Shown here: in pieces, positions 9,195 through 26,201 of the stretch
Layout: each line of letters begins with the position of its first letter
How positions within the stretch are numbered: the first letter of the stretch is position 1
From: Promethearchaeota archaeon
Lineage (GTDB): Archaea > Asgardarchaeota > Lokiarchaeia > Sigyniarchaeales > SOKP01
Direction: 5' to 3'
DNA length: 64,000 nucleotides
Assembly: GCA_016839555.1 (NCBI GenBank)
Contig: JAEOUA010000006.1
Span: forward strand, 64,001-128,000
Notes under the pieces: generated by a model
What the model was told of the DNA's origin: nothing
Seen by the model: only the letters and a program-made list of their open reading frames with translations
Databases searched by the model: none
Program-made: the position numbers and the translations under genes

Positions 9195-9665
9195 TATGTT
9201 AATTTTTTAAAACTAATTTTTATAATTTGTTTTTATTAAATATTAATTTTCAAATAAGATCAGAATAGAGAAAGAAAGTTAAAATATAGTGAGAACATAG
9301 AAAAATTGAAAAAAAGGCTTTAAATGATATTTTTTAAACTCTAATATCTCATATAGGTTCATAATGCTATAAAACTATTGATTTAGATAGGAGAATCAAA
9401 TTTTTGAGAACTTAATAAATAATTATGATAAAAATTTATATGCAGTCACCTTAAGATTTAATTATCTGAGAAGATAAACATAAAGCAAAAATGAAGAGAT
9501 CACCTTCAAAATTTAAAATATATACATTAGATTTTGACATCTCGAAAAATTTATAGTTTAATGATGGATATAGCAAATTCTATTTTACAAATTATTGAAA
9601 CAGAACACGTAAATATAATATAAAACAAAGTTTTAAATTTATCCTTATTTTATAATAAAAATAAT

Positions 9666-10181
9666 ATGGTAAATCTTTTTGATTATTTGCCTTATCCATA
9701 CGGAATAATAATTTCTATAGGTGCTATTATCTTTGCTACAGTATCAATGGAAGGTGTAGCATGGTTTCTTCACAGGTACGTGATGCACCAATTTGGTTGG
9801 TATCTTCATGAGGACCATCATCGATATACAAAAGGAAGATTCCAAAAGAACGATATTTTTGCCTTGATTTTTGCGATATTATCAATAATATTAATTATTC
9901 TTGGATTAAGAGTATACAATCTTCTCTTCTGGTTGGGAATGGGTGTTTCTATATATGGTTTGGGTTATTTTCTCTTTCACGATGTATTATTTCACAAGAG
10001 GATAAAAAATCACTATCGACCAAAAAAAGAGTATATGAAGAGAATATTCGATGCTCACTCATATCATCATCAAACTACTAATTCAAAGGGATCGGGGGGA
10101 TATTCATATGGTTTCCTCTATGCTTCTAAGAAATATAGCACTTTAATAAAAGATTTACAAATAAAAAAGAAGAATGTATAA
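9666..10181 (+). CDS. crtZ: Beta-carotene 3-hydroxylase (non-heme di-iron, fatty-acid-hydroxylase superfamily)
   Basis: ME..AW..HRYVMH..GW..HEDHH, F..ND.FA, YFLFHD...H.R, AH..HH, YGFL. Confidence 0.9.
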   Translation: MVNLFDYLPYPYGIIISIGAIIFATVSMEGVAWFLHRYVMHQFGWYLHEDHHRYTKGRFQKNDIFALIFAILSIILIILGLRVYNLLFWLGMGVSIYGLGYFLFHDVLFHKRIKNHYRPKKEYMKRIFDAHSYHHQTTNSKGSGGYSYGFLYASKKYSTLIKDLQIKKKNV

Positions 10182-10187
10182 TAAAAG

Positions 10188-11810
10188 ATGACCGAATCAA
10201 AAAATGATGATTTTTTCTTTAATGTAGGTATTGATTCAATGGGTTTCTACACATCAAAGTATTACGTGGATCTGAGAGATTTAGCTGAAGTTAGAAATGT
10301 CGATCCAAACAAGTATTTAAAGGGTCTTCTGACAAAAGAAATGCGTATTCCAGGACCCGGAGAAGATATTGTAAGTATGGCGTTAAAAGCCGGCCAAAAT
10401 GCTTTGATGAGAGGAAATATTGATCCAAGTGAGATCGATGCCATATTCCTGGGTACAGAAACGATGACATACGCTGTGAAGTCTGTATCTAATATTCTTG
10501 CAGAAATCTTGAACACTTCACTAAATTGTATAACACAAGATGTCTATAATGCATGTGCGGGTGAAACTCTAGCAGTTTTAAACGCTATAGGACTCATTAA
10601 TAACGGAATAATCAATAAAGCACTCATTATCGGAGCAGATATTTGTAGTTATGAGTTGGAAAGCCCTGGAGAGCCTACTCAAGGAGCGGCAGCGGCAGCT
10701 GTAGTCATTACCAAAAATCCTCGAATAGCAAAATTTGGCAAAAGATTTGGAAAATTTACTGCTAACATAAATGACTTTTACAGATTGCCTTATGAGGATC
10801 ATCCTGTTGTGTTTGGGCAGTACTCTATAAATTCATATATTAGATTTCAGCAGGGAGCATTTGATGATTTCTTCAAAGAAGTGGATTCTATTATACCCGA
10901 TTATTTAGCTTTCCATTCTCCTTTTGCAAAATTACCCTTAAAAAATATCCAGAACTTACTCCTCACTAGATGGGACATATTGAAAAAAATATTACTCGAG
11001 AAACCTATTAATACTGCATCTTCGGTAAAAGTCCAAGAAGAGGCTGTCGAAAATGTGATTAAACTACTTGATAATGTTTTAGAGCCCCTAAATGAAAAGG
11101 AAAAGTTTGTCAACGTCAATGAGATAAAAGAAAAATTACTTAAGAGTATCACACATAAACTCCTGCCAAGTCTCAACGTCCCAATGTCTATCGGAAATAT
11201 GTATTCTGCATCTATATGGTCTCAATTAATTTATCTATTGGAAAGTGTGGTAGACAAAGATGATTTAATATATTTTGGATCTTACGGCTCAGGAGCAACT
11301 TGTATTTCTGGTATGCTGAAAGTTATGCCAGAAGTTTCAGAATTCCGCAAAAAATATCCAACAGTGAACAATTTTATCCAAAATAAAGAGCGTAAATCTA
11401 TTGAAGAATATGAAAAATTAAGAGACAAAAATGATGCTCAAGAAGTTATTTATGCCCAAATTGAACCACACCCTACCGAAGAGAATCATTTTATCGTATT
11501 AAATATGTGTGAAGGAGCTTGTATATCATCAAAATTGAATGGATTAGAGTTTTGTCCAAAAGGGAGACACGAAACTTATCAAAGAAAGCTTCCTTTATAC
11601 GCGGTGGTAAAAGAAATTCCTCTCCAGAATATTGTTGATGAGGATCTATTCAGTTCCTCAATAGTGAGAGTATCTGAAGATGTTAAAAAAGGTGATACAG
11701 TTGAATATAACCTTCTTCGAGCCGGAAAAAATGAATCTATGGTTTGCATAGAGAGTGGTTATATTAATTGGATTCCTACCTACAAACCGATCACTCATCC
11801 ACTCACATAA
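10188..11810 (+). CDS. mvaS: HMG-CoA synthase with C-terminal Zn-ribbon/OB-fold (DUF35-like) extension
   Basis: GTET, catalytic NACAG, GEPTQGAAAAA, FHSPF, GNMYSAS, SYGSGA; extra ~120-aa C-terminal domain. Confidence 0.88.
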   Translation: MTESKNDDFFFNVGIDSMGFYTSKYYVDLRDLAEVRNVDPNKYLKGLLTKEMRIPGPGEDIVSMALKAGQNALMRGNIDPSEIDAIFLGTETMTYAVKSVSNILAEILNTSLNCITQDVYNACAGETLAVLNAIGLINNGIINKALIIGADICSYELESPGEPTQGAAAAAVVITKNPRIAKFGKRFGKFTANINDFYRLPYEDHPVVFGQYSINSYIRFQQGAFDDFFKEVDSIIPDYLAFHSPFAKLPLKNIQNLLLTRWDILKKILLEKPINTASSVKVQEEAVENVIKLLDNVLEPLNEKEKFVNVNEIKEKLLKSITHKLLPSLNVPMSIGNMYSASIWSQLIYLLESVVDKDDLIYFGSYGSGATCISGMLKVMPEVSEFRKKYPTVNNFIQNKERKSIEEYEKLRDKNDAQEVIYAQIEPHPTEENHFIVLNMCEGACISSKLNGLEFCPKGRHETYQRKLPLYAVVKEIPLQNIVDEDLFSSSIVRVSEDVKKGDTVEYNLLRAGKNESMVCIESGYINWIPTYKPITHPLT

Positions 11811-11889
11811 TTTTAAAGATTATTTAAGCTTATTTGCTACAACTCGAGGATCAAAACCGAAAAAATCGCAGAAAAAAATAAAAAAAAGT

Positions 11890-12993
11890 TTATATTCGTT
11901 TAAATTCTATTTTCCTTTCTTCTATCCATTCTTTTAGAGAAGAACTAATTACAACAGGGGCTTTTTTTAATTCATCAATATTTTTACTCCCAGTTAATAG
12001 CATTGTAATTTTTAATTCTCTAAAGGTTTGTTCAATAAACGTTTCTATGGAATCCTGTCCTTCTAACGCAACCATAAGAAATGGTCTAGCTAAGGCTGCA
12101 AAATTTGCTCCAAGCCTTAGTGCTTTGGCGATATCAATTCCACTTCTAATTCCTCCGCTGCCAATTATTTGAATGGATGAAGGTCTATTTACCACTGACT
12201 TCACCTCAAGGATACTAGCTGCCGTTGGAATCCCCCAATCCCAAAATAGTTTGCCTAATTCCCTTTTAGATACTTCCCCATATTTTTTTGCTCTATAAAA
12301 TTCCACAGCCACCCAACTAGTTCCTCCTACCCCAGACACATCAATAATATTAATTCCGATATCAAACAATTGTTGAGCAATCTCCTTAGAAATTCCGCAA
12401 CCCGTTTCCTTAATCACTATGGGAACATCTAACTGATCCTTGAGCATTTGTATTTTTTCAATTGCTCCAGAAAACATATTATCACCTTCAGGTTGAATGA
12501 CTTCTTGAATCACATTGAGATGTATCGCTACAGCGTCCGCATCGATATTATCTATAATTTCTTGGACATACTTAAAACTTTCGGAGGTTGTAATTTGAGC
12601 GATTCCAATATTTCCAACGATAGGTATGTCTGGAGCGCATTCTCTTACCACAGAAAAAGAACTTTTTGTTTCTGGATGCTTAAGGATAACTCTTTGACTT
12701 CCCACCATCATTGGGATTTTATATTTTTGAGCCGCTTTTGCAAGTGAAACATTAATTTTTTTTGTCAATTCTGTTCCACCAGTCATTGCTCCAACGAAAA
12801 CTGGTGCTGTTATTGATTTTCCTAAAAATTCACAAGAAAAAGTAAGATCATCTAAATTTAATTCTGGTAGGGTATTATGCACGAATGTGACATGCTCAAG
12901 CCAAGTTGTTTGGTTGCTTTCAACTTTCTCTTGACTTACGAGTAAAATATGTTCATCCTTTCTATTTGTAATTGGAATTTTTCTTATTTCCAT
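11890..12993 (-). CDS. fni: Type 2 (FMN-dependent) isopentenyl-diphosphate isomerase
   Basis: RKDEH, AMTGG, VGSQR, HLN..QE..QPEGD, KETGCG, GGTSW, WGIPT, SGGIR.G.D. Confidence 0.95.
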   Translation of the reverse strand: MEIRKIPITNRKDEHILLVSQEKVESNQTTWLEHVTFVHNTLPELNLDDLTFSCEFLGKSITAPVFVGAMTGGTELTKKINVSLAKAAQKYKIPMMVGSQRVILKHPETKSSFSVVRECAPDIPIVGNIGIAQITTSESFKYVQEIIDNIDADAVAIHLNVIQEVIQPEGDNMFSGAIEKIQMLKDQLDVPIVIKETGCGISKEIAQQLFDIGINIIDVSGVGGTSWVAVEFYRAKKYGEVSKRELGKLFWDWGIPTAASILEVKSVVNRPSSIQIIGSGGIRSGIDIAKALRLGANFAALARPFLMVALEGQDSIETFIEQTFRELKITMLLTGSKNIDELKKAPVVISSSLKEWIEERKIEFKRI

Positions 12994-15287: not shown

Positions 15288-16673
15288 GTGACAGGAAGGC
15301 TTAATCGAGCAGTGGCATCTTTAGGTGGAGCTCTCATCTGTTTTTTTGTCTTAATTTTTTTAGAGCAATATAAATTTAGTAAAATTTTCGATTTGTTATT
15401 TGGGACCGTAAGAGATGGATTTGCCAATTTCCATAGTATTAGTTTAATTTTAGCAATGATGTTTATCGTTCAGATTACCCATGAATCAGGATTATTTCAA
15501 TTCATTTCAATAAGTCTTATAAAATTATCAAAAGCTAAACCTATTTTGCTTATGACTTTTTTCTGCTTAATTACCCTATTAATTTCGGCTATATTAAATA
15601 ATATTCTAGCTGTTATTATCTTAATACCGCTCACCATAACGGTTTCTCGGATTCTAAATATAAATCCCTCTCCATATATTCTTACTCAAGCAATATTAGT
15701 TAATATTGGAGGAACTTTGTTTTCTATCTCTTCTATTCCAAACATATTAATAACTACCTATGCAAAAATAAGTTTTATCGAGTTTTTTCTAAACGTTGGG
15801 ACACTTTCTTTAGTCGTGTTTGTATTTACTTTAATATTTTTTATCATGCTCTACCGAAGAGACCTAGTCATTCCAAGAGAAAATTTAGATATTTTAATTG
15901 AGTATAATGTATGGAATTTTGTTCAAAATCGAAATCTGTTATATAAATCAATGATCTCATTTATAGTATTATTTTCCCTCTTCATTATTATTCCCCCAGA
16001 ACTTTTAGCTCCAGATATCATCGCATGGATTATTGCAATCAGTTTAATACTAATAAGTAGATTAAATCCAAAGGAAATCTTTTCTAAGGTTGACCTGGAA
16101 TTGATCCTTTATCTATTAGGTATTTTTATCATAGCGGGAGCTTTAGAATTAAGTGGAATTCTAAAATTATTTGGAACCTTAATTTCAAACTTGGGTGAAG
16201 GCGATTCCTACATTTTATTAATTTTAATCTTATGGATTTCTGCCTTATTAAGTAGTAGTATAGATAACATCCCTATAACAAAGGTCTTAATACCTGTGGT
16301 TGGGAATATACAAAATCTTAATTCTGAAGCATTGAGAACGCAATTATTTTATAGCTTAGCTATAGGAGCTAATTGGGGCGATAATTTAACACCTCTTGGG
16401 GATAATATTTTAGTAATGAATATTTGTGAGCAAAATAAACGACCCATATCTTTTAGCCAATTCTTTCGATTAGGATTTTTCACCACAATTTACCAATTAT
16501 TAATCATAACAGTCTATTTTACAGTAGTATTTAAACCAATCCTAGGAATTGTTTTAATTTTTATAATATCGTTCTTAATCATCATATGTTATGTATTTTT
16601 TAAAATTAGTAGAGATAAGTATAAATCGATTGAAAATTTATTTATTAAAGTAAGAAAATTTATCGTGGGGTGA
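15288..16673 (+). CDS. ArsB/NhaD/SLC13 (CitMHS, P-protein-like) ion transporter
   Basis: SAILNN, NIGGTL..I.S.PN, SS.IDNIP, GANWGDNLTPLGDN; frame open upstream to 15225, encoding another hydrophobic helix. Confidence 0.85.
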   Translation: MTGRLNRAVASLGGALICFFVLIFLEQYKFSKIFDLLFGTVRDGFANFHSISLILAMMFIVQITHESGLFQFISISLIKLSKAKPILLMTFFCLITLLISAILNNILAVIILIPLTITVSRILNINPSPYILTQAILVNIGGTLFSISSIPNILITTYAKISFIEFFLNVGTLSLVVFVFTLIFFIMLYRRDLVIPRENLDILIEYNVWNFVQNRNLLYKSMISFIVLFSLFIIIPPELLAPDIIAWIIAISLILISRLNPKEIFSKVDLELILYLLGIFIIAGALELSGILKLFGTLISNLGEGDSYILLILILWISALLSSSIDNIPITKVLIPVVGNIQNLNSEALRTQLFYSLAIGANWGDNLTPLGDNILVMNICEQNKRPISFSQFFRLGFFTTIYQLLIITVYFTVVFKPILGIVLIFIISFLIIICYVFFKISRDKYKSIENLFIKVRKFIVG

Positions 16674-17317
16674 TAATAATGGTTTTTAAAAGCATTGAAA
16701 GAATTAAAAAAGCTATTCCAGAAATAGTACATGTTGCTATGTTTTATAATAATGGAACCATTTTTAACACAACCTTTGAACAAGAGATTAACATTCCAAA
16801 AGTGGGGGAAAATCTCGCTAGGATGTTAGACCGCTTTAGAAGATTGTATGAACTATTAAATTTTGAACATAAGGATTATAAAAAAGTAATTTTAGAAACA
16901 GAAGATGTTTTCACTATCGTATTAAAATTAGGAGAAGAGAGTAATATTGCATTATTCTTTAAAGCTGGGGATGTTAAAGATATCAATATCAGTTCGATAC
17001 AGAGATATTTAAAGAGAATAGAAGAATTAATCGATATGGATAAGAAAGAGCTTTTATTACAAGATGTACTTTCTTTGGAAAGTGAAATCAAGAATTTGGA
17101 ATCTGAATTAACCAATAAAAAGGAAAGAATTGGAGATTTAAGATTTCAATTAAAAGCGTTAACAGAGGAGGAGAGAGAAAAGAGAGAAAAAGAAAGTGAT
17201 ATCATCAAGAAAATTGAGTCTATCGAAAAGGAATCTAATAGTATCGAACAAGAAATTTCGCAGAAAATAAGTAAAAGGGATAGCTTAAGAAGTGAAATAG
17301 AACATCATTCAATTTAA
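16670..17317 (+). CDS. Roadblock/longin-like N-terminal domain plus C-terminal coiled coil
   Basis: Helix-beta-beta-helix-beta-beta-beta-helix pattern (IVHVAMFYNNGTIF...KVILETEDVFTIVLKL...IALFF), then heptad-rich E/K region; overlaps the transporter stop. Confidence 0.5.
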   Translation: MIIMVFKSIERIKKAIPEIVHVAMFYNNGTIFNTTFEQEINIPKVGENLARMLDRFRRLYELLNFEHKDYKKVILETEDVFTIVLKLGEESNIALFFKAGDVKDINISSIQRYLKRIEELIDMDKKELLLQDVLSLESEIKNLESELTNKKERIGDLRFQLKALTEEEREKREKESDIIKKIESIEKESNSIEQEISQKISKRDSLRSEIEHHSI

Positions 17318-17387: not shown

Positions 17388-18629
17388 TTATAAATATTTT
17401 TCAAATCTTTTAGTAAGCCAATTAATAGTTTCTAAACTTTTCTTATGATCGGGGCCTTCTATATTCATTAATCGTAGAAAAGGCATTACCATATCAAAAA
17501 AGATATATTTTTTTTGGGAATCCTCATCATTCTCAAGAATTCGATCAAATTTTTCAGTGAAATCCTTTCTTAACGATTGCAATTGCTTATATTGCTTTTC
17601 TGTTATGAAATATAGACTCATAGAGGTCTCTAAAATCGTGTTGATTATATTAGAATACATTTCTGAGGATTTTGACTGCTTTAATGATAAAAATGTTAAG
17701 GCAGTAAGTCCTTGCTTACCCTTTGGAAAATCTTCTATGAAGGTTTGCAAAAGTTTATTTAGCTCTTCATATATTGATAAAAGAAATACTTTTTTTCTAA
17801 GTTTCATCCTTAATTTCATAATATCCTTTCCTGAACTTGTATCAAAAGATTCATATGTGAAAATCTCTGGATTATATAGAGATTCTTTATTTAAGGCATA
17901 ATATTGTTTATCAATAGAACCCGGCGTTATCTCATATTCTTTTGTATATGATTGTATAATACCCAAATATATTAACCTTCTTGTATACCGAGACATAGTT
18001 GCCTTACTTTTCTTAAGATAATTTGAGATTTCTGCTAAGCTTAATTCTTTATAAGTAGATAAGAGCATGATTATCTTCAGGTTTAAGTCGTTCTTAAATA
18101 ATTCTAAAGCTTTCAAATCGATAAGAACATCTAACATCTTATTGATTGCTTCTTTAAATTCTTTAGTCTTGTTCTCTGAAAGTTCTACATAACTAGTAGC
18201 ACCCTCATTCTTAGCAAATTCTATATAATCCCTTCTGTTTGTAGTTTCTTTGCTTTCTGATTTATTTTTCTTATTGGCAATCAGAATAAAAGGACAAATG
18301 TTATCAATATTTTCCCTAATGTTTATTAATTCTTTTTTGCAATACTCAAATGTTTTAGGATCTGAAGGATCAAATATCAAAATAGCTGCATTTGTTCCTT
18401 CGAAATATTTACTGTGTAAAAATTCAAATTTTTTATCTGCTTTAAAGTCCCAAAATTGAAGGAAGTAATCATTACCATATCTATTAATTTTATGTTTATA
18501 AAACTCAACTCCAATCTTATCTTTTTGATTAATAAATGATTCTAAGAATTCATTAAGTAATGAAGTTTTTCCAGCATTCTCTTTACCTATAATGATAATT
18601 TTAAATGGGATTGCGTCCATTTCTTTCAA
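17388..18629 (-). CDS. Rab-like small GTPase domain (degenerate) fused to a winged-HTH regulator domain
   Basis: GKENAGKTS, IGVEF, LQFWD, YFEG, LIFD, ANK; then LKIIMLL...LSLAEISNYLKKSKATMSRYTRRLIYLGII. Confidence 0.8.
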   Translation of the reverse strand: MKEMDAIPFKIIIIGKENAGKTSLLNEFLESFINQKDKIGVEFYKHKINRYGNDYFLQFWDFKADKKFEFLHSKYFEGTNAAILIFDPSDPKTFEYCKKELINIRENIDNICPFILIANKKNKSESKETTNRRDYIEFAKNEGATSYVELSENKTKEFKEAINKMLDVLIDLKALELFKNDLNLKIIMLLSTYKELSLAEISNYLKKSKATMSRYTRRLIYLGIIQSYTKEYEITPGSIDKQYYALNKESLYNPEIFTYESFDTSSGKDIMKLRMKLRKKVFLLSIYEELNKLLQTFIEDFPKGKQGLTALTFLSLKQSKSSEMYSNIINTILETSMSLYFITEKQYKQLQSLRKDFTEKFDRILENDEDSQKKYIFFDMVMPFLRLMNIEGPDHKKSLETINWLTKRFEKYL

Positions 18630-18865
18630 CTCTTTTATGTGTTAAAATTTTTATTGTTAATCTCATTTTTTTTATTAAAATATTATTTCAAAATGATCAT
18701 ATAAAATAAGGTTACTTTCATATTTAAGTATTTGCAACATTTCATAGATTACCTTTTATGGAACAAAGTAATTATTTTAAATTTATACATTCAATTAAAA
18801 ATATAGAATAAAATAGATCAAGATGTTTTATTTCTTAGAATCGACTTTCTAAATTCCGAATAATA

Positions 18866-20317
18866 ATGTATAAACCAATAAACAAATCTGTAAAGAAACA
18901 CCAGGTTCCAGAGTGGTTTCATGATGCAAAATTAGGGATTTTTGTTCACTGGGGATTATATTCCGTTCCAGCATTTGCAGTCACTGGTATGAATTTAATT
19001 GAAGTAATAAAACAAGAAGGTTTTGGGGGGCAATTCAAAAAAAATCCTTATGCTGAATGGTATTTGAATTCCCTTCGGATTTCCGATAGTCCTACCTACC
19101 ACTATCATAAAGAAACATTTGGAAAGGATTTTGCATATGAAGACTTTATTCCGATATTTAATGACGCAATAAAAAAGTGGAATCCAGAGGAGATGGCAGA
19201 AATTTTTAAAAAAGCGGGAGCTCAATACGTTGTCTTAGTTACAAAACATCACGATGGATTCTTGCTATGGCCTAGTAGATATCCTCATCCAAGAAAAGAA
19301 AGATACTACGCAAGCAGAGATATCGTAGGAGAACTTACTCACGCTGTAAAAGAATGCAATATGAAGATGGGATTTTATTATTCCGGCTCATTAGATTGGT
19401 CTTTTAATCCTAACCCTATAAAGGATGTAATTGACTTATTAACGAGCGGTTTAACGGATCAAGAATATATAGACTACGCAAATAATCATTGGTACGAATT
19501 AATCGACATTTATGAGCCGTTAATCCTTTGGAATGATATTGGATATCCCCCAGATACGGATGTATATGAAATCTTCGCATATTTCTATAATTCACATCCA
19601 AATGGAGTTATAAACGATCGTTGGAGTCAAATCAGTAAAAGATTGCGTAAAATCATAAAATTCAAACCATTTGCTACTATAATAAGAGAGGTTGCTAAGA
19701 GAAAATTTATGAAAGGGATTTCTGGAATGACTACAAAAATGCATTGTGATTTCAGAACACCAGAATATACGCATTTTAAAGAAATTAAACCATATAAATG
19801 GGAAAGCACTCGGGGTATTGGCAATTCTTTTGGATATAATAAATTCGAGAAAGAAGAGGATTATTTAACTTCTGAGGAGTTGATTCGAATGTTTGTGGAT
19901 ATTGTAAGTAAAAATGGTAATCTTCTCATTAATGTGGGTCCGAAAGCTGATGGAACTATTCCGGAATTGCAAAAAAAATGCTTATTAGACCTTGGTAAAT
20001 GGCTCGAAATAAATGGAGAAGCAATTTTCGGCACGCGTCCTTGGGATCATGCTGAATCAATTACAACGGAAGGAATATCAATTCGATATACCCAAAAAGA
20101 AGAATCTCTCTATGTCTTTATTTTAGAGAAACCGAAATCCAAGGAGATAATTATTATATCCTTACACATTCATTCAAATGCTAAGATTACATTGCTTGGA
20201 AATGATGAAACCCTTACATGGACTCAAAAAGGAAAAAATCTAGAAATTATATTACCTGAACACCTATCAGATTCTCCAGTATACACTTTAGCAATAAGTC
20301 CTCAATCGGAAAAATAG
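18866..20317 (+). CDS. Alpha-L-fucosidase (GH29)
   Basis: PEWFHDAKLGIFVHWG.YSVP, YAEWY, TKHHDGF.LW, LWND, VINDRW, WE..RG.G.SFGY, VSKNGNLLIN.GP. Confidence 0.93.
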   Translation: MYKPINKSVKKHQVPEWFHDAKLGIFVHWGLYSVPAFAVTGMNLIEVIKQEGFGGQFKKNPYAEWYLNSLRISDSPTYHYHKETFGKDFAYEDFIPIFNDAIKKWNPEEMAEIFKKAGAQYVVLVTKHHDGFLLWPSRYPHPRKERYYASRDIVGELTHAVKECNMKMGFYYSGSLDWSFNPNPIKDVIDLLTSGLTDQEYIDYANNHWYELIDIYEPLILWNDIGYPPDTDVYEIFAYFYNSHPNGVINDRWSQISKRLRKIIKFKPFATIIREVAKRKFMKGISGMTTKMHCDFRTPEYTHFKEIKPYKWESTRGIGNSFGYNKFEKEEDYLTSEELIRMFVDIVSKNGNLLINVGPKADGTIPELQKKCLLDLGKWLEINGEAIFGTRPWDHAESITTEGISIRYTQKEESLYVFILEKPKSKEIIIISLHIHSNAKITLLGNDETLTWTQKGKNLEIILPEHLSDSPVYTLAISPQSEK

Positions 20318-20399: not shown

Positions 20400-20888
20400 T
20401 TATTCTTTAAAATTTATAGGTAATTCTTTCCAAAACTTACAACCCATACACTGAAGAATTTGCTTTCTTTCTCCTTTTTCATTAATCATGATTGTTTTTA
20501 CCATTTTTTCATTACATTTAGTACAAACGCCCATTATTTTTCTTGAAGTTAATGATTCTTTTTCTAAGCGGCGCAATTTTCTTATTCGTTCTATTCTTTT
20601 CTGAGCACTGGCAAGGTCATCATATAGCTCTACATAACTCACTTTAAAATTTCCATCAAAGCGTTTGGTATATCTATCTCTCTTTTCAATATGATCCTTA
20701 AGTCGTTTGGCGGGATTCTTTGCAGAATCGGTATAATAGAGAAAATCATTGCTTTCCTTTGTGAGAGCTTTTTTGTTCTTATAGCATTTTAATACATACA
20801 CGCAAGAATCATAAAGCTTAGAGAAGTTGGAATCAATTGAGATATTTTTAATTTTTTCCATATTATGTGTGAAACATATTCTATCCAA
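20400..20888 (-). CDS. GIY-YIG nuclease-like protein (UPF0213-like) with C-terminal Zn ribbon
   Basis: VYVLKC...YYT....P.KRL..H...YTK...Y.E; CTKC...CMGC. The Gly of YxG appears replaced (YYTD). Confidence 0.65.
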   Translation of the reverse strand: MDRICFTHNMEKIKNISIDSNFSKLYDSCVYVLKCYKNKKALTKESNDFLYYTDSAKNPAKRLKDHIEKRDRYTKRFDGNFKVSYVELYDDLASAQKRIERIRKLRRLEKESLTSRKIMGVCTKCNEKMVKTIMINEKGERKQILQCMGCKFWKELPINFKE

Positions 20889-21227: not shown

Positions 21228-22295
21228 TTAATCATAAGCATTCACATCTCTCTGGGCAATAAAAAACCATCCGACCGTCTTCTCTAAGGTTTTAAAATCG
21301 ATACTCAATTTTAGTGGAATTTCTTCATCAAGATGGAGCGTTATTATGGAATTGTCTTCAAATAAAAAGGAGGAGACCTTTTTAAGATTGTCAATAGAGA
21401 TATAGACTTTAATTCTTTCTTTTATATCTTGAGAATTAAATTGTATCTTATGAATATCTTTATTTTCCCACCTAATATTTGTATTTCCTTCCTCATTATT
21501 ATCATAAAAATGTATGAAACTATTTGTTAGTTGAATTCCGATACCTTCAGAAAACCTACCCGCTTGAGATGTAATATGAAAGAATTTGTCCTTATCGAGA
21601 GAACAACACCCTTTATATTTCAGTTCGATTAATTCATCTAATATAATCTTATTTTCATAGTTGATTTTTACATCATTTATGTTTCTAGATATTTTAGACT
21701 TGAGAATGGGAGAAGATTGAATAATTTCAATTTTTTCTTCATTAAACCCAAAATTTGTGGTGATTTTCTCAGATTTATCACATTCCAGGCACTTTAATAA
21801 GGAGTCTAAATTAACGAGAAGATCTAATTGCTTGTTTAAGAAAAATTGACTATTATCACTTTTTAAAATAATATCAAATAGGTAAGTCTTAGCTTCGTTT
21901 GTTGTATAGGCGTGGATTTCATTATAAAGAATCCTAAAAACTATTTTATCATTAGATTCCCTTAGGGCTTTAAACACTTTAAATAACGAGTATCCATCTC
22001 TAAATTCTATTTCGCATAAATAAGTATGTTTCTTCCTTTCCTGTAGATAATTAAAAAGTTCTACTTTAAATCTGGCGATAGCTTCGCTTAAAATCTCGCT
22101 ACTGGTTGAAATATTTTTGAGTTTGATAAGTTCAGATATTCGATGGAACAAAAAATCCAAAATTTCTGAAGAAATTTGTGAATCTTCATCATTTAGAAGA
22201 ATGGGACTTATTTTTTCATAATCCTTTATCCAATCTGTTCTATTTATATTTAATAGATTTACGATCTTTTTTATCTGTTCATCGTGCCTACCCAA
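21228..22295 (-). CDS. Divergent PCNA-like sliding clamp with ~90-aa N-terminal extension
   Basis: C-terminal ~260 aa follow the PCNA pattern (F...F.AL, VNLDSL.K.L, Y.SIDNLKKV, L.L.EEIPLKL, WFFIAQR, equivalent to the YLAPR ending). Confidence 0.6.
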   Translation of the reverse strand: MGRHDEQIKKIVNLLNINRTDWIKDYEKISPILLNDEDSQISSEILDFLFHRISELIKLKNISTSSEILSEAIARFKVELFNYLQERKKHTYLCEIEFRDGYSLFKVFKALRESNDKIVFRILYNEIHAYTTNEAKTYLFDIILKSDNSQFFLNKQLDLLVNLDSLLKCLECDKSEKITTNFGFNEEKIEIIQSSPILKSKISRNINDVKINYENKIILDELIELKYKGCCSLDKDKFFHITSQAGRFSEGIGIQLTNSFIHFYDNNEEGNTNIRWENKDIHKIQFNSQDIKERIKVYISIDNLKKVSSFLFEDNSIITLHLDEEIPLKLSIDFKTLEKTVGWFFIAQRDVNAYD

Positions 22296-22556: not shown

Positions 22557-25500
22557 GTGATTATAATGGAAGTAAGTAAAGAAACTAGGATGAGAATTAG
22601 TGAATATCTTAGCAAGATTAAATCAGCTAAGGATTTATTTGAACTTTTTAGGACTCTCAACTACCCAGAAGATATAGTTTTTGATATATCTGCTAAAAGA
22701 AAGAAGGAAACATTTGAATTTAGGAAAGATGACGATGAAAAAATTAAAGAGATATATTCAATACTAAGTATAGAAAATAAAACACATATTTTTCTCCTTG
22801 AGACTACCTCTATTGCGCCTTCCTTTATTAGAAGTGTGACAGCAACTTTCGATCGACAATATCTTAACTTTTTACTAATAATAACTCTTGATTATTCAGA
22901 AATAGTGTTTGTTTTTCCTAATCGTGAAAAGATTAATGGAGATCAGCATAAATTAAAATTAACGAAACTAATTATCAATACTACTGAAATTTATTATACG
23001 GATATTCAAACCATATCAACACTATTATATGAAGAAGGGATAAAGCGACGCCAGTTGTGGCGTCAATGGAAATCAGCATTTAGTGTGGAAAGAGTTACGA
23101 AGAACTTCTTTGATGATTATAAAAAAATTTTTTTCTTACTCAAAAATGAATTTTCTAATCAAGGAATTCCAAAAAAAGAATCACACGAATTTACGCTACA
23201 ATTACTCAATAGAATAATGTTTGTCTATTTTATATCAAAAAAACAGGGTTGGCTTAACACTAAGAGATTTATGAAATGGTTTTGGGAATCTTATAAAAAG
23301 CAAGAAAAATATGATAGTGATGAATTTTACGAAATTTGGTCAAAACAGTTATTCTTTAAGGCATTTAATAATCAATCGAATCTTTTATCTGACCTTCCAA
23401 GTGAAATAAAAAAGGAAATATCTAATTTCCCATTCCTTAATGGTGGATTATTTACTTCAAATGATCTAGATGCTTTAGAAATAAAAATTTCTGATAGATT
23501 ATATGAGAAAATCCATAAATTCTATGAGAAATACAACTTCACCATTAAAGAAGATATGCCTCTTGAAGAAGAAGTTGCTGTTGATCCCCAAATGATCGGA
23601 TATGTCTACGAATCCTTAGCTAATGTAGCCGAAGAGATCTATGACCGTCACGATTTAGGAATTTTTTATACTCCTCGAGTAGAAGTAGATTTTATGGCAA
23701 GAAGAGTATTAATTGAATATCTCTCAAAAAATCTTGAGAATATTCCAAAAGAAAAATTATACCATCTTATTTTTGATCCCCCTGAAGATAAAAAGAAAAT
23801 TATTAATGATTTTGATGAGAAAATCTGGCGTAGGATTGAAGAAATATTAGACAACTTATCCGCCGTCGATCCTGCTTGTGGTTCGGGTGCATTTCTTGTT
23901 GGATTACTTAATGTATTAACAGAATTGTACCATTTAATATATCAACAACTTAATCGAAAATCTACAGATTTTGAATTGAAGAAAAGAATTATTCAATATT
24001 CCCTTTATGGTGTTGATATAATGCCTTGGGCAATTCACGCTGCTGAATTGAGATTATGGTTACAGCTTATGGTCGAAACAGAATTAAAAAAAGAAGAGCT
24101 TAGAAAATACCCTCTATTGCCAAATCTAGATTTAAATTTAAGAATTGGTGATTCTTTAGTACAAGAAATTGGGGGACAATATTTTAATCTTAGAACTAGT
24201 GATTTAGAAGCTTCAATAAAAAAGAAATTATTAATTCTAAAGGATGAAAAACGAAATTATTTTGATAATTTGCCTAGAGCTAAATTTAAAACCCCATTAG
24301 AAATTAAGGAAGAAGAATTAAGATTGTTTGAAGAAATTATTGAAAGTCGCCTAAATATTTTAAAGAGAGAAATAACTAATTTAAAAAATAACATAAAAAG
24401 AGCAAAATCACAAAAAGATTTATATGGAAAAGTAATAGTTGATGAAAAGAAAGTAAAAGCATTACAAAAACAAATTGATGAAAAAGAAAGGTTTATTCTC
24501 GACTTAAATGAAATCAAGAGACTAATTGATATACCAGGGAAAAAACCATTTATTTGGGATATTGACTTTGCTGAAATATTTGGAGAAAAAAATGGTTTTG
24601 ATATTGTTATTGGTAATCCTCCATATGTTAAGCAAGATGATATTGCTCCATTTAATAAAATGAAATCTGAAATTACTTCAAAAGAAAAACAATTATATAA
24701 AGATAAACTTATAAAGTCTGTTATTAATCAATTTCCAGTGATAACCTCAATAGCAAAAAAATGTGATTATTTTATCTATTTCTATTTTCACGGATTAAGT
24801 TTGCTGAATGAAAAGGGAGCTTTTTGTTTCATTACATCTAATTCCTGGTTGGATGCTAAATATAGTAAAAGTCTTCAAGAATTTCTAATAAAATATGTCC
24901 CTATTATTGCAATTTATGATAATGCTAAAAGAACATTCAAACACGCTCTTGTAAATACTATAATTTCTGTTTTTGGATCACCATTAATCGTAGAAAGAAG
25001 AATTGCAGGTCTTAAAGTAATAAAAAAAAGGGACTGGAAGATGTTGGATTATACAGCTAAATTTGTGATGTTTAAAAAACCATTTGAAGAAGTTATAAAT
25101 ACAAAAAATCTACTATATATTGAAAAAATAGAATTAAAAGTTCAAGGCTCCGAAATCGTAGATATTATAGAAAATATCATCCGAACCGAAGATTATCGGG
25201 TATTTCCAATTACTCAAAAGAATCTTTTAGAAGAAGGATGGGTTTACCCTGATAATTATAAGAAAAGTGAAGGATTTTTCAAAAAAGGTTCTTACAATGG
25301 GGAAAAATGGGGAAAATACTTACGGGCTCCAGATATTTATTTTAATATTATAGAGAAGGGGAAAGAAAATCTTGTTCTACTCGATAAAATTGCTGTGGTT
25401 AATGAAGGAAGACCCACTGGAGCGAATAATTATTTTTTTATGCCTATTCAAATTGCTAAGAAATTTAATATAGAAAATGAGTTTTTATTGAACGGAATTA

Positions 25501-26201
25501 TGAAAACCAGAGGTAAGAGTTACTTTATAATAGATGAAGATATGATAGAGAGATATTTTCTACAGATTGACTCGGAAGAGAATGAAATTGAAGATAAAAA
25601 TGTAATGAAATATATTAAATATGGTGAGGAAAATGTATTACCAAAAAGCAAAACACTGAAATCTAAAAATATATGGTGGAAATTTACAAATAGAGATGCT
25701 GCAGATTTATTAGCTCCGTGTGGTTATGGTAAAACAACCTTTTGTGCTATAAATAAAGCAAAAGCAGTAACAAGTAATAGTTATGTAGAAATAAGACTAG
25801 TTGATAAAGATTATTTAACCCCTCTATTTTATTTCTTGAATTCTGCTATTGGGTGGTTATTTTTGGAAATAATTGGAAGACATTCTCTTGGGGGTGGTAT
25901 GTTAAAAGTAGATCCAATAGAATATCGTCAATTATTGGTTTTAAAAAAAGAGCTATTTCAAGAACAAACTATCCCGCCAAATCGTAAAATAAAATCAGTT
26001 TTTATCGAATGTGGATTTAATCCTTCTAAACCAATAAGAGAGCAAATACCTAATCCAATTAATGAAAGGCATATTATAGATGATATTATTTTTGAAAAAC
26101 TTAAATTAAACGAAGAAGAAAGAAATGAAGTTTATTGGAGCGTTTGTGAACTAATAAAACAAAGAACTGATAAAGCTAAAAGTCTTAAAAAAAATAAATA
26201 A
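22557..26201 (+). CDS. Large N6-adenine DNA methyltransferase (Eco57I/Type IIG-like) with C-terminal target recognition region
   Basis: FLNGGLF, DP.MIG.VYE, G.FYTPR, DPACGSGAF, FDIVIGNPPYV, FITSNSWLD. Confidence 0.9.
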   Translation: MIIMEVSKETRMRISEYLSKIKSAKDLFELFRTLNYPEDIVFDISAKRKKETFEFRKDDDEKIKEIYSILSIENKTHIFLLETTSIAPSFIRSVTATFDRQYLNFLLIITLDYSEIVFVFPNREKINGDQHKLKLTKLIINTTEIYYTDIQTISTLLYEEGIKRRQLWRQWKSAFSVERVTKNFFDDYKKIFFLLKNEFSNQGIPKKESHEFTLQLLNRIMFVYFISKKQGWLNTKRFMKWFWESYKKQEKYDSDEFYEIWSKQLFFKAFNNQSNLLSDLPSEIKKEISNFPFLNGGLFTSNDLDALEIKISDRLYEKIHKFYEKYNFTIKEDMPLEEEVAVDPQMIGYVYESLANVAEEIYDRHDLGIFYTPRVEVDFMARRVLIEYLSKNLENIPKEKLYHLIFDPPEDKKKIINDFDEKIWRRIEEILDNLSAVDPACGSGAFLVGLLNVLTELYHLIYQQLNRKSTDFELKKRIIQYSLYGVDIMPWAIHAAELRLWLQLMVETELKKEELRKYPLLPNLDLNLRIGDSLVQEIGGQYFNLRTSDLEASIKKKLLILKDEKRNYFDNLPRAKFKTPLEIKEEELRLFEEIIESRLNILKREITNLKNNIKRAKSQKDLYGKVIVDEKKVKALQKQIDEKERFILDLNEIKRLIDIPGKKPFIWDIDFAEIFGEKNGFDIVIGNPPYVKQDDIAPFNKMKSEITSKEKQLYKDKLIKSVINQFPVITSIAKKCDYFIYFYFHGLSLLNEKGAFCFITSNSWLDAKYSKSLQEFLIKYVPIIAIYDNAKRTFKHALVNTIISVFGSPLIVERRIAGLKVIKKRDWKMLDYTAKFVMFKKPFEEVINTKNLLYIEKIELKVQGSEIVDIIENIIRTEDYRVFPITQKNLLEEGWVYPDNYKKSEGFFKKGSYNGEKWGKYLRAPDIYFNIIEKGKENLVLLDKIAVVNEGRPTGANNYFFMPIQIAKKFNIENEFLLNGIMKTRGKSYFIIDEDMIERYFLQIDSEENEIEDKNVMKYIKYGEENVLPKSKTLKSKNIWWKFTNRDAADLLAPCGYGKTTFCAINKAKAVTSNSYVEIRLVDKDYLTPLFYFLNSAIGWLFLEIIGRHSLGGGMLKVDPIEYRQLLVLKKELFQEQTIPPNRKIKSVFIECGFNPSKPIREQIPNPINERHIIDDIIFEKLKLNEEERNEVYWSVCELIKQRTDKAKSLKKNK

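Follow-up and report, generated by a model that had tools for sequence, protein, structure and literature searches.

The gene at positions 17388-18629 on the reverse strand of the window, as the whole stretch of 64,000 nucleotides analysed here is called, encodes a real and conserved protein in which a catalytically dead Rab-like GTPase domain is joined to a dimeric DNA-binding regulator. Taken as a whole, and with somewhat more belief than doubt, this protein is best read as a self-repressing Phr-like homodimer, in which the hydrolysis-dead Rab-like domain serves as an interaction or input module. The initial annotation of this DNA had already proposed a one-component regulator composed of such a domain and a winged helix-turn-helix (wHTH), and its domain composition, motif tallies and folds support this proposal. 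Each part has been described before, namely the Rab-like domains of Asgard archaea (PMC4915359, PMC10933270), regulators of the Phr type (PMC6316755) and pseudoGTPases that act as interaction modules (PMC12490416), while the combination represents a new variant of the one-component regulator. The literature searched, which included few subscription papers, yielded no report of a wHTH regulator with a fused Ras-type domain.

Gene and domain organisation

The ORF comprises 413 codons without a stop when counted from the TTG at 18629. The ATG at 18620 is the likelier start, since the database protein is 410 aa long, the relatives start at this position and a ribosome-binding site precedes it in the related locus L001. 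The source assembly (3.74 Mb, ∼30% GC) contains 63 ORFs with a small-GTPase domain, and the nearest named relatives of the fusion protein belong to Lokiarchaeota/Promethearchaeota, which identifies the source as an Asgard archaeon of the Lokiarchaeial lineage. A Pfam search with the whole ORF revealed a Ras domain at residues 10-167 (E 1.5e-22, above the cut-off) and HTH_5 at residues 184-227 (24.2 bits versus a cut-off of 22). Structure prediction, suggested earlier as a check, yielded an AF2 model of the full fusion protein (mean pLDDT 71.5) with a small-GTPase fold, a linking helix and then a wHTH, the elements of which follow the order helix-strand-helix-helix-wing; one continuous helix connects the G domain to the wHTH in this model. 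Searches of the ESM Atlas retrieved the G domain alone.

Degenerate motifs of the Rab-like domain

The G domain (18120-18611, reverse strand; residues 7-170 counted from the TTG) matches Pfam Ras, and its closest solved relatives in both sequence and fold are Rab35 (E 1e-17) and Rab11 (Foldseek match to Rab11a, TMt 0.81). Alignment of the window copy with Rab35 and 47 standalone GTPases of the same genome placed the RabF1-5-like motifs in register, as had been recognised before, and these motifs together with a small-GTPase fold nearest to Rabs mark an Asgard Rab-like G domain. Such motifs are, however, normally carried by Lokiarchaeial small GTPases (PMC4915359), and it is the fusion that is surprising. 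The prenylatable C-terminal cysteines of a eukaryotic Rab are absent, there being no Cys after the G domain.

The same alignment bore out every motif change listed in the initial annotation. In the window copy, the G1 P-loop (18564-18587, reverse strand, as are all motifs below) is intact and conforms to GxxxxGK[ST], the G2 Thr is replaced by Lys38, and G3/switch II (18435-18452) carries Ala64 and Asp65 in place of Gly and the catalytic Gln, departing from the canonical DxxG with its Gln. In G4 (18264-18275) the Asp of [NT]KxD is Asn122, and the degenerate G5 (18171-18179) lacks Ala-Lys. The window copy shares a GTPase fold with degenerate G motifs with the class I pseudoGTPases; these also bind no nucleotide, whereas the intact P-loop of the window copy may still permit binding.

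Some of these losses are family-wide. The catalytic Gln is found in none of the 31 fused G domains versus 37 of the 47 standalone GTPases of this genome, DxxG in 2/31 versus 37/47 and the G2 Thr in 11/31 versus 37/47; the G3 Gly by itself is kept in 14 of the 31. G1 is intact in 26 and G4 in 25 of the 31 fused domains. The G4 Asp is present in 27 of the fused domains and in all 47 standalone ones, and its loss is specific to the clade of the window copy, to which all four exceptions belong (Asn in three members, Glu in one). Judging by these tallies, meaningful GTP hydrolysis by the G domain is very improbable. As a separate observation, a near-identical pair of 334-aa proteins (G000 C10:309481-310485 and C4:220369-221373) combines a degenerate G domain, devoid of the G2 Thr and DxxG, with a C-terminal extension. 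In the phylogenetic tree the fused G domains nest among the Rab-like GTPases of this genome; the free tree separates them into two groups (starred), and the AU test does not reject a single clade (p 0.35).

Role of the G domain

The aromatic residues of the Rab effector face (Phe43, Trp60 and Tyr75) are retained in the fused G domain. Together with the purifying selection described below, this suggests that the fold is maintained because of the contacts it makes and not as an enzyme. For the window copy, a nucleotide-free interaction module is the reading we hold to be reasonably probable from its motifs.

Alternatively, and more tentatively, the G domain may be a sensor that binds a purine nucleotide without hydrolysing it, with occupancy controlling DNA binding; the ligand would be GTP/GDP in most members and possibly XTP/ITP in the window copy. 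Consistent with this, most members retain G1 and G4 and have lost switch II alone, and the modelled continuous helix joins the G domain to the wHTH. Besides its intact P-loop, the window copy carries the exact Asp to Asn change in G4 that abolishes GTP/GDP binding and gives a preference for XTP in Ypt1 (PMC2120555) and likewise shifts the preference of Ras to xanthine nucleotides (PMC7952092). The earlier suggestion of a non-guanine nucleotide or none at all agrees with this change and may thus be right. Within its clade, however, there is no common pocket, because the G4 Lys, too, is missing from the relative with 89% identity, and the other two nearest relatives (P0004 and P0005, both with a broken G1) are devoid of the P-loop Ser/Thr, one of these having Glu at G4. 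Moreover, the loss of the switch II Gly makes coupling to the gamma-phosphate doubtful. Genes for inosine/xanthosine triphosphatase and Maf-like proteins lie near three members of the family (L035:10578-11147, L051:3596-4165, L086:6537-7684), and the triphosphatase would suit a sensor of this kind; these neighbours, however, accompany members that keep the G4 Asp and may reflect synteny only. Sensing without hydrolysis is more likely for the members with intact G1 and G4 than for the window copy.

It is improbable that the G domain is a vestigial passenger, kept for folding or spacing only, beside a wHTH and C-terminal domain (CTD) acting alone as in the unfused relatives. Unfused wHTH-CTD modules of ∼230 aa are indeed common across Asgard archaea, the gene is split by a stop in one genome and truncated in another, the G domain is the part least conserved from one subclade to another (50-54% identity versus 62-78%), and in the dimer model described below it lies outside the confident contacts. 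On the other hand, its dN/dS, determined for two independent pairs as 0.17 and, close to saturation, 0.13, is similar to that of the wHTH in close pairs, and, as judged by these ratios, the domain is under purifying selection. It is also retained across proteins that are only 25-38% identical, and is duplicated or extended in some.

DNA-binding and dimerisation modules

The wHTH was mapped to positions 17892-18089 (reverse strand), with the recognition helix at about 17967-18005, and is modelled with a pLDDT of ∼90. The middle domain had been described as an ArsR/MarR-like wHTH, and HTH_5 together with the AF2 fold upholds the wHTH, whereas membership in ArsR/SmtB or MarR has to be withdrawn in favour of a Phr/PH1932-like type. 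The ArsR/SmtB metalloregulator model NF033788 gave no match, generic HTH_5 alone among the ArsR-type models passes, residues 181-246 contain no Cys, and Pfam MarR remains below its cut-off (19.8 versus 24.6 bits). In the VIA comparison, the wHTH aligned to that of Phr with a Z of 12.5 and an rmsd of 1.9 over 76 residues.

The C-terminal domain (17391-17831, reverse strand) is Phr/PH1932/Kfla_6221-like. A profile built from 69 modules matches Phr and PH1932 over positions 4-158, with E values of 4.5e-7 and 1.3e-9; Phr, PH1932 and Kfla_6221 head the Foldseek list for the module, and 160 residues align to Kfla_6221 (4g6q) with a Z of 10.9. A deeper model of the C-terminal module reached a pLDDT of 82.6. 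Whole-module TM values are low (0.28-0.45), so that the likeness to Phr/PH1932 is one of architecture and not of rigid superposition; it nevertheless extends beyond the HTH and comprises a wHTH, a helical stalk and a C-terminal domain. The latter was previously taken to be helical. The helices are present, but the domain is not purely helical, as it contains two strands, which pair across the subunits in the dimer model.

Modelling of two copies gave an ipSAE of 0.71 versus 0.00 for the best control, with at least 62% contact agreement among the runs and a pLDDT of at least 72; in the calibration set, the ipSAE mark was attained by 20 of 30 solved dimers and by one of 23 monomers. The confident interface is limited to residues 267-402, the closest contacts being formed by the strands of the two chains. 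The protein is therefore modelled as a homodimer held together by its C-terminal domain, a prediction that may partly reflect likeness to the solved Phr-type dimers.

Candidate operator

The spacer between the regulator and its divergent neighbour (18630-18865), put forward earlier as the DNA on which binding could be assayed, contains a probable binding site. This main candidate is a 12-bp palindrome at 18733-18744, with two mismatches to the palindrome that is perfect in L001 (TGCAACGTTGCA). A second, partial site, which is a conserved half-site, is located 26 bp away at 18759-18770, an arrangement also seen in L035 and L051. The putative promoter region of the regulator (18709-18727, reverse strand) consists of a TATA-like box (18720-18727) and a degenerate third site just downstream, and the layout site-TATA-site recurs in relatives. 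The spacers of the four closest loci share the palindrome, the half-site 26 bp off and the TATA-like box.

Taken in isolation, the site of the window, with its two mismatches, is within chance expectation (13 matches in 64 kb versus 11.6 expected). The palindrome was, however, detected within two mismatches upstream of the gene or operon head at 15 of 20 evaluable distant loci, the proteins of which are 22-38% identical and which, being related by descent, amount to about six or seven independent lineages. Three-mismatch sites occupy the same position at two further distant loci, and no clear site was found at L036, L039 and L088. As to the background, only 2 of 2698 upstream regions of this genome reach the two-mismatch level, both being the regulator's own spacer. 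The sites are mostly paired, 25-28 bp apart, and flank a TATA-like box. Among the loci fetched after the motif had been defined, three of four evaluable cases contain the palindrome. A position-weight test is partly circular, as its training sites were chosen by a consensus first seen in this clade, whereas the mismatch counts in the distant loci are not. Unfused relatives with a different recognition helix have a different palindrome and lack the fusion-type one. Loci L025-L033, which encode unfused wHTH-CTD proteins, share a palindrome with the core GAATCGATTC about 160-210 bp upstream of the gene, a candidate operator of a widespread uncharacterised Asgard regulator.

The palindrome accompanies the regulator in unrelated contexts, namely next to pyrK/pyrD and elp3, to tungstate and Moco genes, and to dehydrogenases with roadblock genes, and it is absent upstream of 14 orthologues of the Mo enzyme that have no adjacent regulator. 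A wider regulon was considered and rejected, as exact matches in five fusion-bearing genomes are mostly intragenic and near control counts. In the source genome the regulator's own spacer is the only strong intergenic site, the second-best matrix match falling in coding sequence. A scan with a sigma-70 model, which is ill-suited to archaea, gave nothing above chance. Since the site moves with the regulator and no wider regulon was found, autoregulation appears to be its conserved function. The palindrome is probably an autoregulatory operator and, on the strength of its conservation, we are rather confident that the protein is a sequence-specific autoregulator. At three related loci, ORFs of 73-79 aa lie between the operator candidate and the fusion gene (L002:4781-5020, L003:737-958, L051:8637-8858); none is present in the window, and the two that were scanned had no match in NCBIfam.

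Genomic neighbourhood

The divergent fucosidase reported before is a genuine gene (18866-20317, forward strand; alpha-L-fucosidase of the GH29 family, Pfam E 1.7e-87), but it is a secondary rather than a conserved neighbour, and the link implied with it does not hold, since the adjacency results from a deletion. In the three nearest relatives, the divergent gene encodes a DMSO-reductase-family molybdoenzyme accompanied by a 4Fe-4S subunit, and the window corresponds to L001 minus these two genes. Blastn against L001 and comparison of the assemblies placed the approximate junction of this ∼2.9 kb deletion, with a 5-bp microhomology, at 18829-18833. No orthologue of the molybdoenzyme or the 4Fe-4S protein was found elsewhere in the source genome (92% complete), and the enzyme is present in 31 of 134 members of the source family. 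Because the deletion removed the two intervening genes, the fucosidase inherited the molybdoenzyme promoter region, including a conserved promoter-like element (18793-18821, forward strand) that presumably served the lost operon. In G277, a genome where the regulator was not found, the Mo enzyme is likewise preceded by an element of this kind. Control of the fucosidase by the regulator, if any, would be incidental, and co-regulation of the divergent operon is possible, proximity being the sole argument for it. The Mo enzyme was also considered as a target in trans and rejected, because no site occurs upstream of it where the fusion gene lies elsewhere.

A sugar-responsive regulator of the divergent fucosidase is accordingly very unlikely. 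The two genes are divergent in the window. In L001/L108, only ∼45 bp separate the fucosidase from the Fe-S gene that precedes it, so that both may share an operon, and the gene that converges from the opposite side is beta-galactosidase-like; yet L002/L052 have no fucosidase in this position, L003 has the Mo enzyme first, the fucosidase occurs at no other family locus examined, and no sugar-binding domain was detected.

In some relatives, roadblock genes are located directly upstream of the fusion, and no partner gene adjoins the window copy. The convergent ORF at 16670-17317 (forward strand), which overlaps the stop of a CitMHS/ArsB transporter gene, encodes a C-terminal coiled coil after an N-terminal alpha/beta part that on visual inspection resembles roadblock or longin domains; it was rejected as a roadblock partner, having neither similarity to the L035 roadblock protein nor a Pfam match. 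Downstream of the family member at L038:1-5965, and in the same orientation, lie genes for a tungstate ABC transporter and apparent molybdenum-cofactor genes, with no operator in the gap before tupA. In another genome of the genus, in which no fusion was found, the Mo enzyme is immediately preceded by a fragment of a small GTPase (L095:3929-4186). Elsewhere in the window, a 355-aa protein (21228-22295, reverse strand) with a weak PCNA_N match (E 0.007) apparently has two clamp-like segments. A 1214-aa protein with adenine-methyltransferase motifs (22557-26201, forward strand) resembles a type IIG restriction-modification enzyme, a GIY-YIG gene being located at 20400-20888, and a carotene-hydroxylase-like gene, a long HMG-CoA synthase (540 aa) and a type 2 IPP isomerase-like gene lie in series at 9666-12993 (forward strand).

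Distribution and architecture of the family

Full-length relatives at 89, 62 and 57% identity each come from a separate assembly, and about fifteen further 50% clusters have the same architecture. With the fusion present in JGI, NCBI, ENA and Logan assemblies, the assembly artefact feared earlier does not account for it. A chimeric assembly can be practically dismissed, and so can the idea that the supposed transcription factor is in fact a Roco (Roc-COR) protein, as the Pfam Roc match at its N-terminus (E 7.7e-18) might suggest, as these independent assemblies agree, Ras outscores Roc, COR has no Pfam match at E 0.01 and the C-terminal module is of the Phr/PH1932 type.

The search for the Ras/Rab-wHTH architecture advised at the outset, made with the full fusion profile, matched 20 of 400 Asgard genomes, all within the family of the source genome; among the genomes sampled, no other Asgard family yielded a match. 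The 20 genomes are patchily spread over eight genera, including that of the source genome, in whose six other genomes this search did not find the fusion, and in two of the 20 the gene is split or truncated. Split, truncated or remnant copies (L039:5996-7225, L024, L045:8124-8468) suggest frequent turnover at these loci.

In the tree of wHTH-CTD modules, the fused ones cluster together with good support (99/94) and fall into two subgroups that mirror the two groups of G domains; where G domains occur in tandem, each of the two types is represented once. In some members the Rab-like domain is preceded by a half-TBP repeat, for which the Pfam TBP match in L045 has an E of 1.6e-18 (L045:6397-7923, L049:6890-8422, L050:5276-6799, L053:1-1356), with the operator candidate abutting the TATA-like box, and one (P0018, L089:474-2150) extends the Rab-like, wHTH and C-terminal domains by a C-terminal receiver (REC, E 4.4e-16). 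At the L051:6091-10952 locus, a roadblock gene precedes a tandem-G-domain member; further upstream are a wHTH-roadblock fusion (9316-9876) and, in divergent orientation, an ORF of ∼299 aa whose G domain is MglA-like.

Proposed mechanism and significance

In the self-repressor that we propose, the C-terminal domains would dimerise, and the paired wHTH domains would bind the 12-bp palindrome, copies of which flank the TATA-like box of the fusion gene itself at a spacing of 25-28 bp. Occupancy of the sites may then block TBP/TFB and repress the gene, although the choice of repression over activation follows from the position of the sites only. The G domain would not cycle as a switch and, in the window copy, would most likely bind no guanine nucleotide; instead, it may either serve as a docking surface, with the basal machinery, a second GTPase or a protein of the roadblock/longin kind as possible partners, or pack on the wHTH, thereby tuning DNA binding. 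A bolder picture, which seems to us rather doubtful, is that a Ras-superfamily G domain directly sets the activity of the transcription factor, in which a nucleotide or a roadblock/longin partner would switch operator binding beside the TATA box, the pocket of the window clade having been re-tuned from guanine to xanthine/inosine and other members having added a half-TBP or a receiver.

Asgard small GTPases are mostly read as precursors of membrane trafficking. Here, a Rab-like domain that is enzymatically dead yet selected has been recruited into an archaeal DNA-binding regulator, and the fusion makes it possible to test whether a signalling fold of eukaryotic style acts directly on gene expression. 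A specific operator candidate makes the role of such a domain approachable with one protein and one oligonucleotide, and the family represents a natural series from intact to broken nucleotide pockets. The importance of the finding is limited by its range: the patchy occurrence within one Lokiarchaeial family indicates a side branch and not a step towards eukaryotes.

Comparison with known systems

The ArsR/SmtB and MarR regulators share the wHTH fold with the fusion, for which HTH_5 is just over the cut-off, but the fusion differs from them in having no Cys in its wHTH, no NCBIfam metalloregulator match, a sub-cut-off MarR score and a separate C-terminal dimerisation domain. With Phr (PF1790, PDB 2p4w), PH1932 (1uly/2cwe) and Kfla_6221 (4g6q), it has in common the wHTH, the long helices and the C-terminal dimerisation domain, while these proteins themselves lack a G domain. 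Phr is a repressor that binds over its promoters at a three-part site (PMC6316755), as opposed to the compact 12-bp palindrome of the fusion family, and controls a heat-shock regulon, whereas the fusion has a different conserved element and no regulon was found for it.

Asgard Rab-like small GTPases (PMC4915359; Thor-Rab, PMC10933270) resemble the fused domain in fold, RabF1-5 motifs and the absence of a prenylation signal, but the latter is degenerate in G2, G3 and G4 and has a DNA-binding module attached. Where PMC10933270 names the fusion partner of an Asgard GTPase, it is a roadblock or longin domain; the remaining partners are domains of unknown function that the paper does not name. In class I pseudoGTPases (AAGAB/Irc6, PMC12490416; p190RhoGAP, PMC5593906), a GTPase fold with lost G motifs acts as a protein-interaction module, much as we read the fusion; these proteins are eukaryotic, biochemically demonstrated and free of a DNA-binding domain, whereas the window copy has an intact P-loop. 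The nearest concept comes from the Group 3 MglA systems, in which a receiver-wHTH protein is encoded beside MglA and the small GTPase was proposed to act on transcription by way of the wHTH (PMC4316618). There, the components are separate proteins and the GTPase is of the MglA type, while the fusion unites a Rab-like domain and the wHTH in one chain with a predicted operator.
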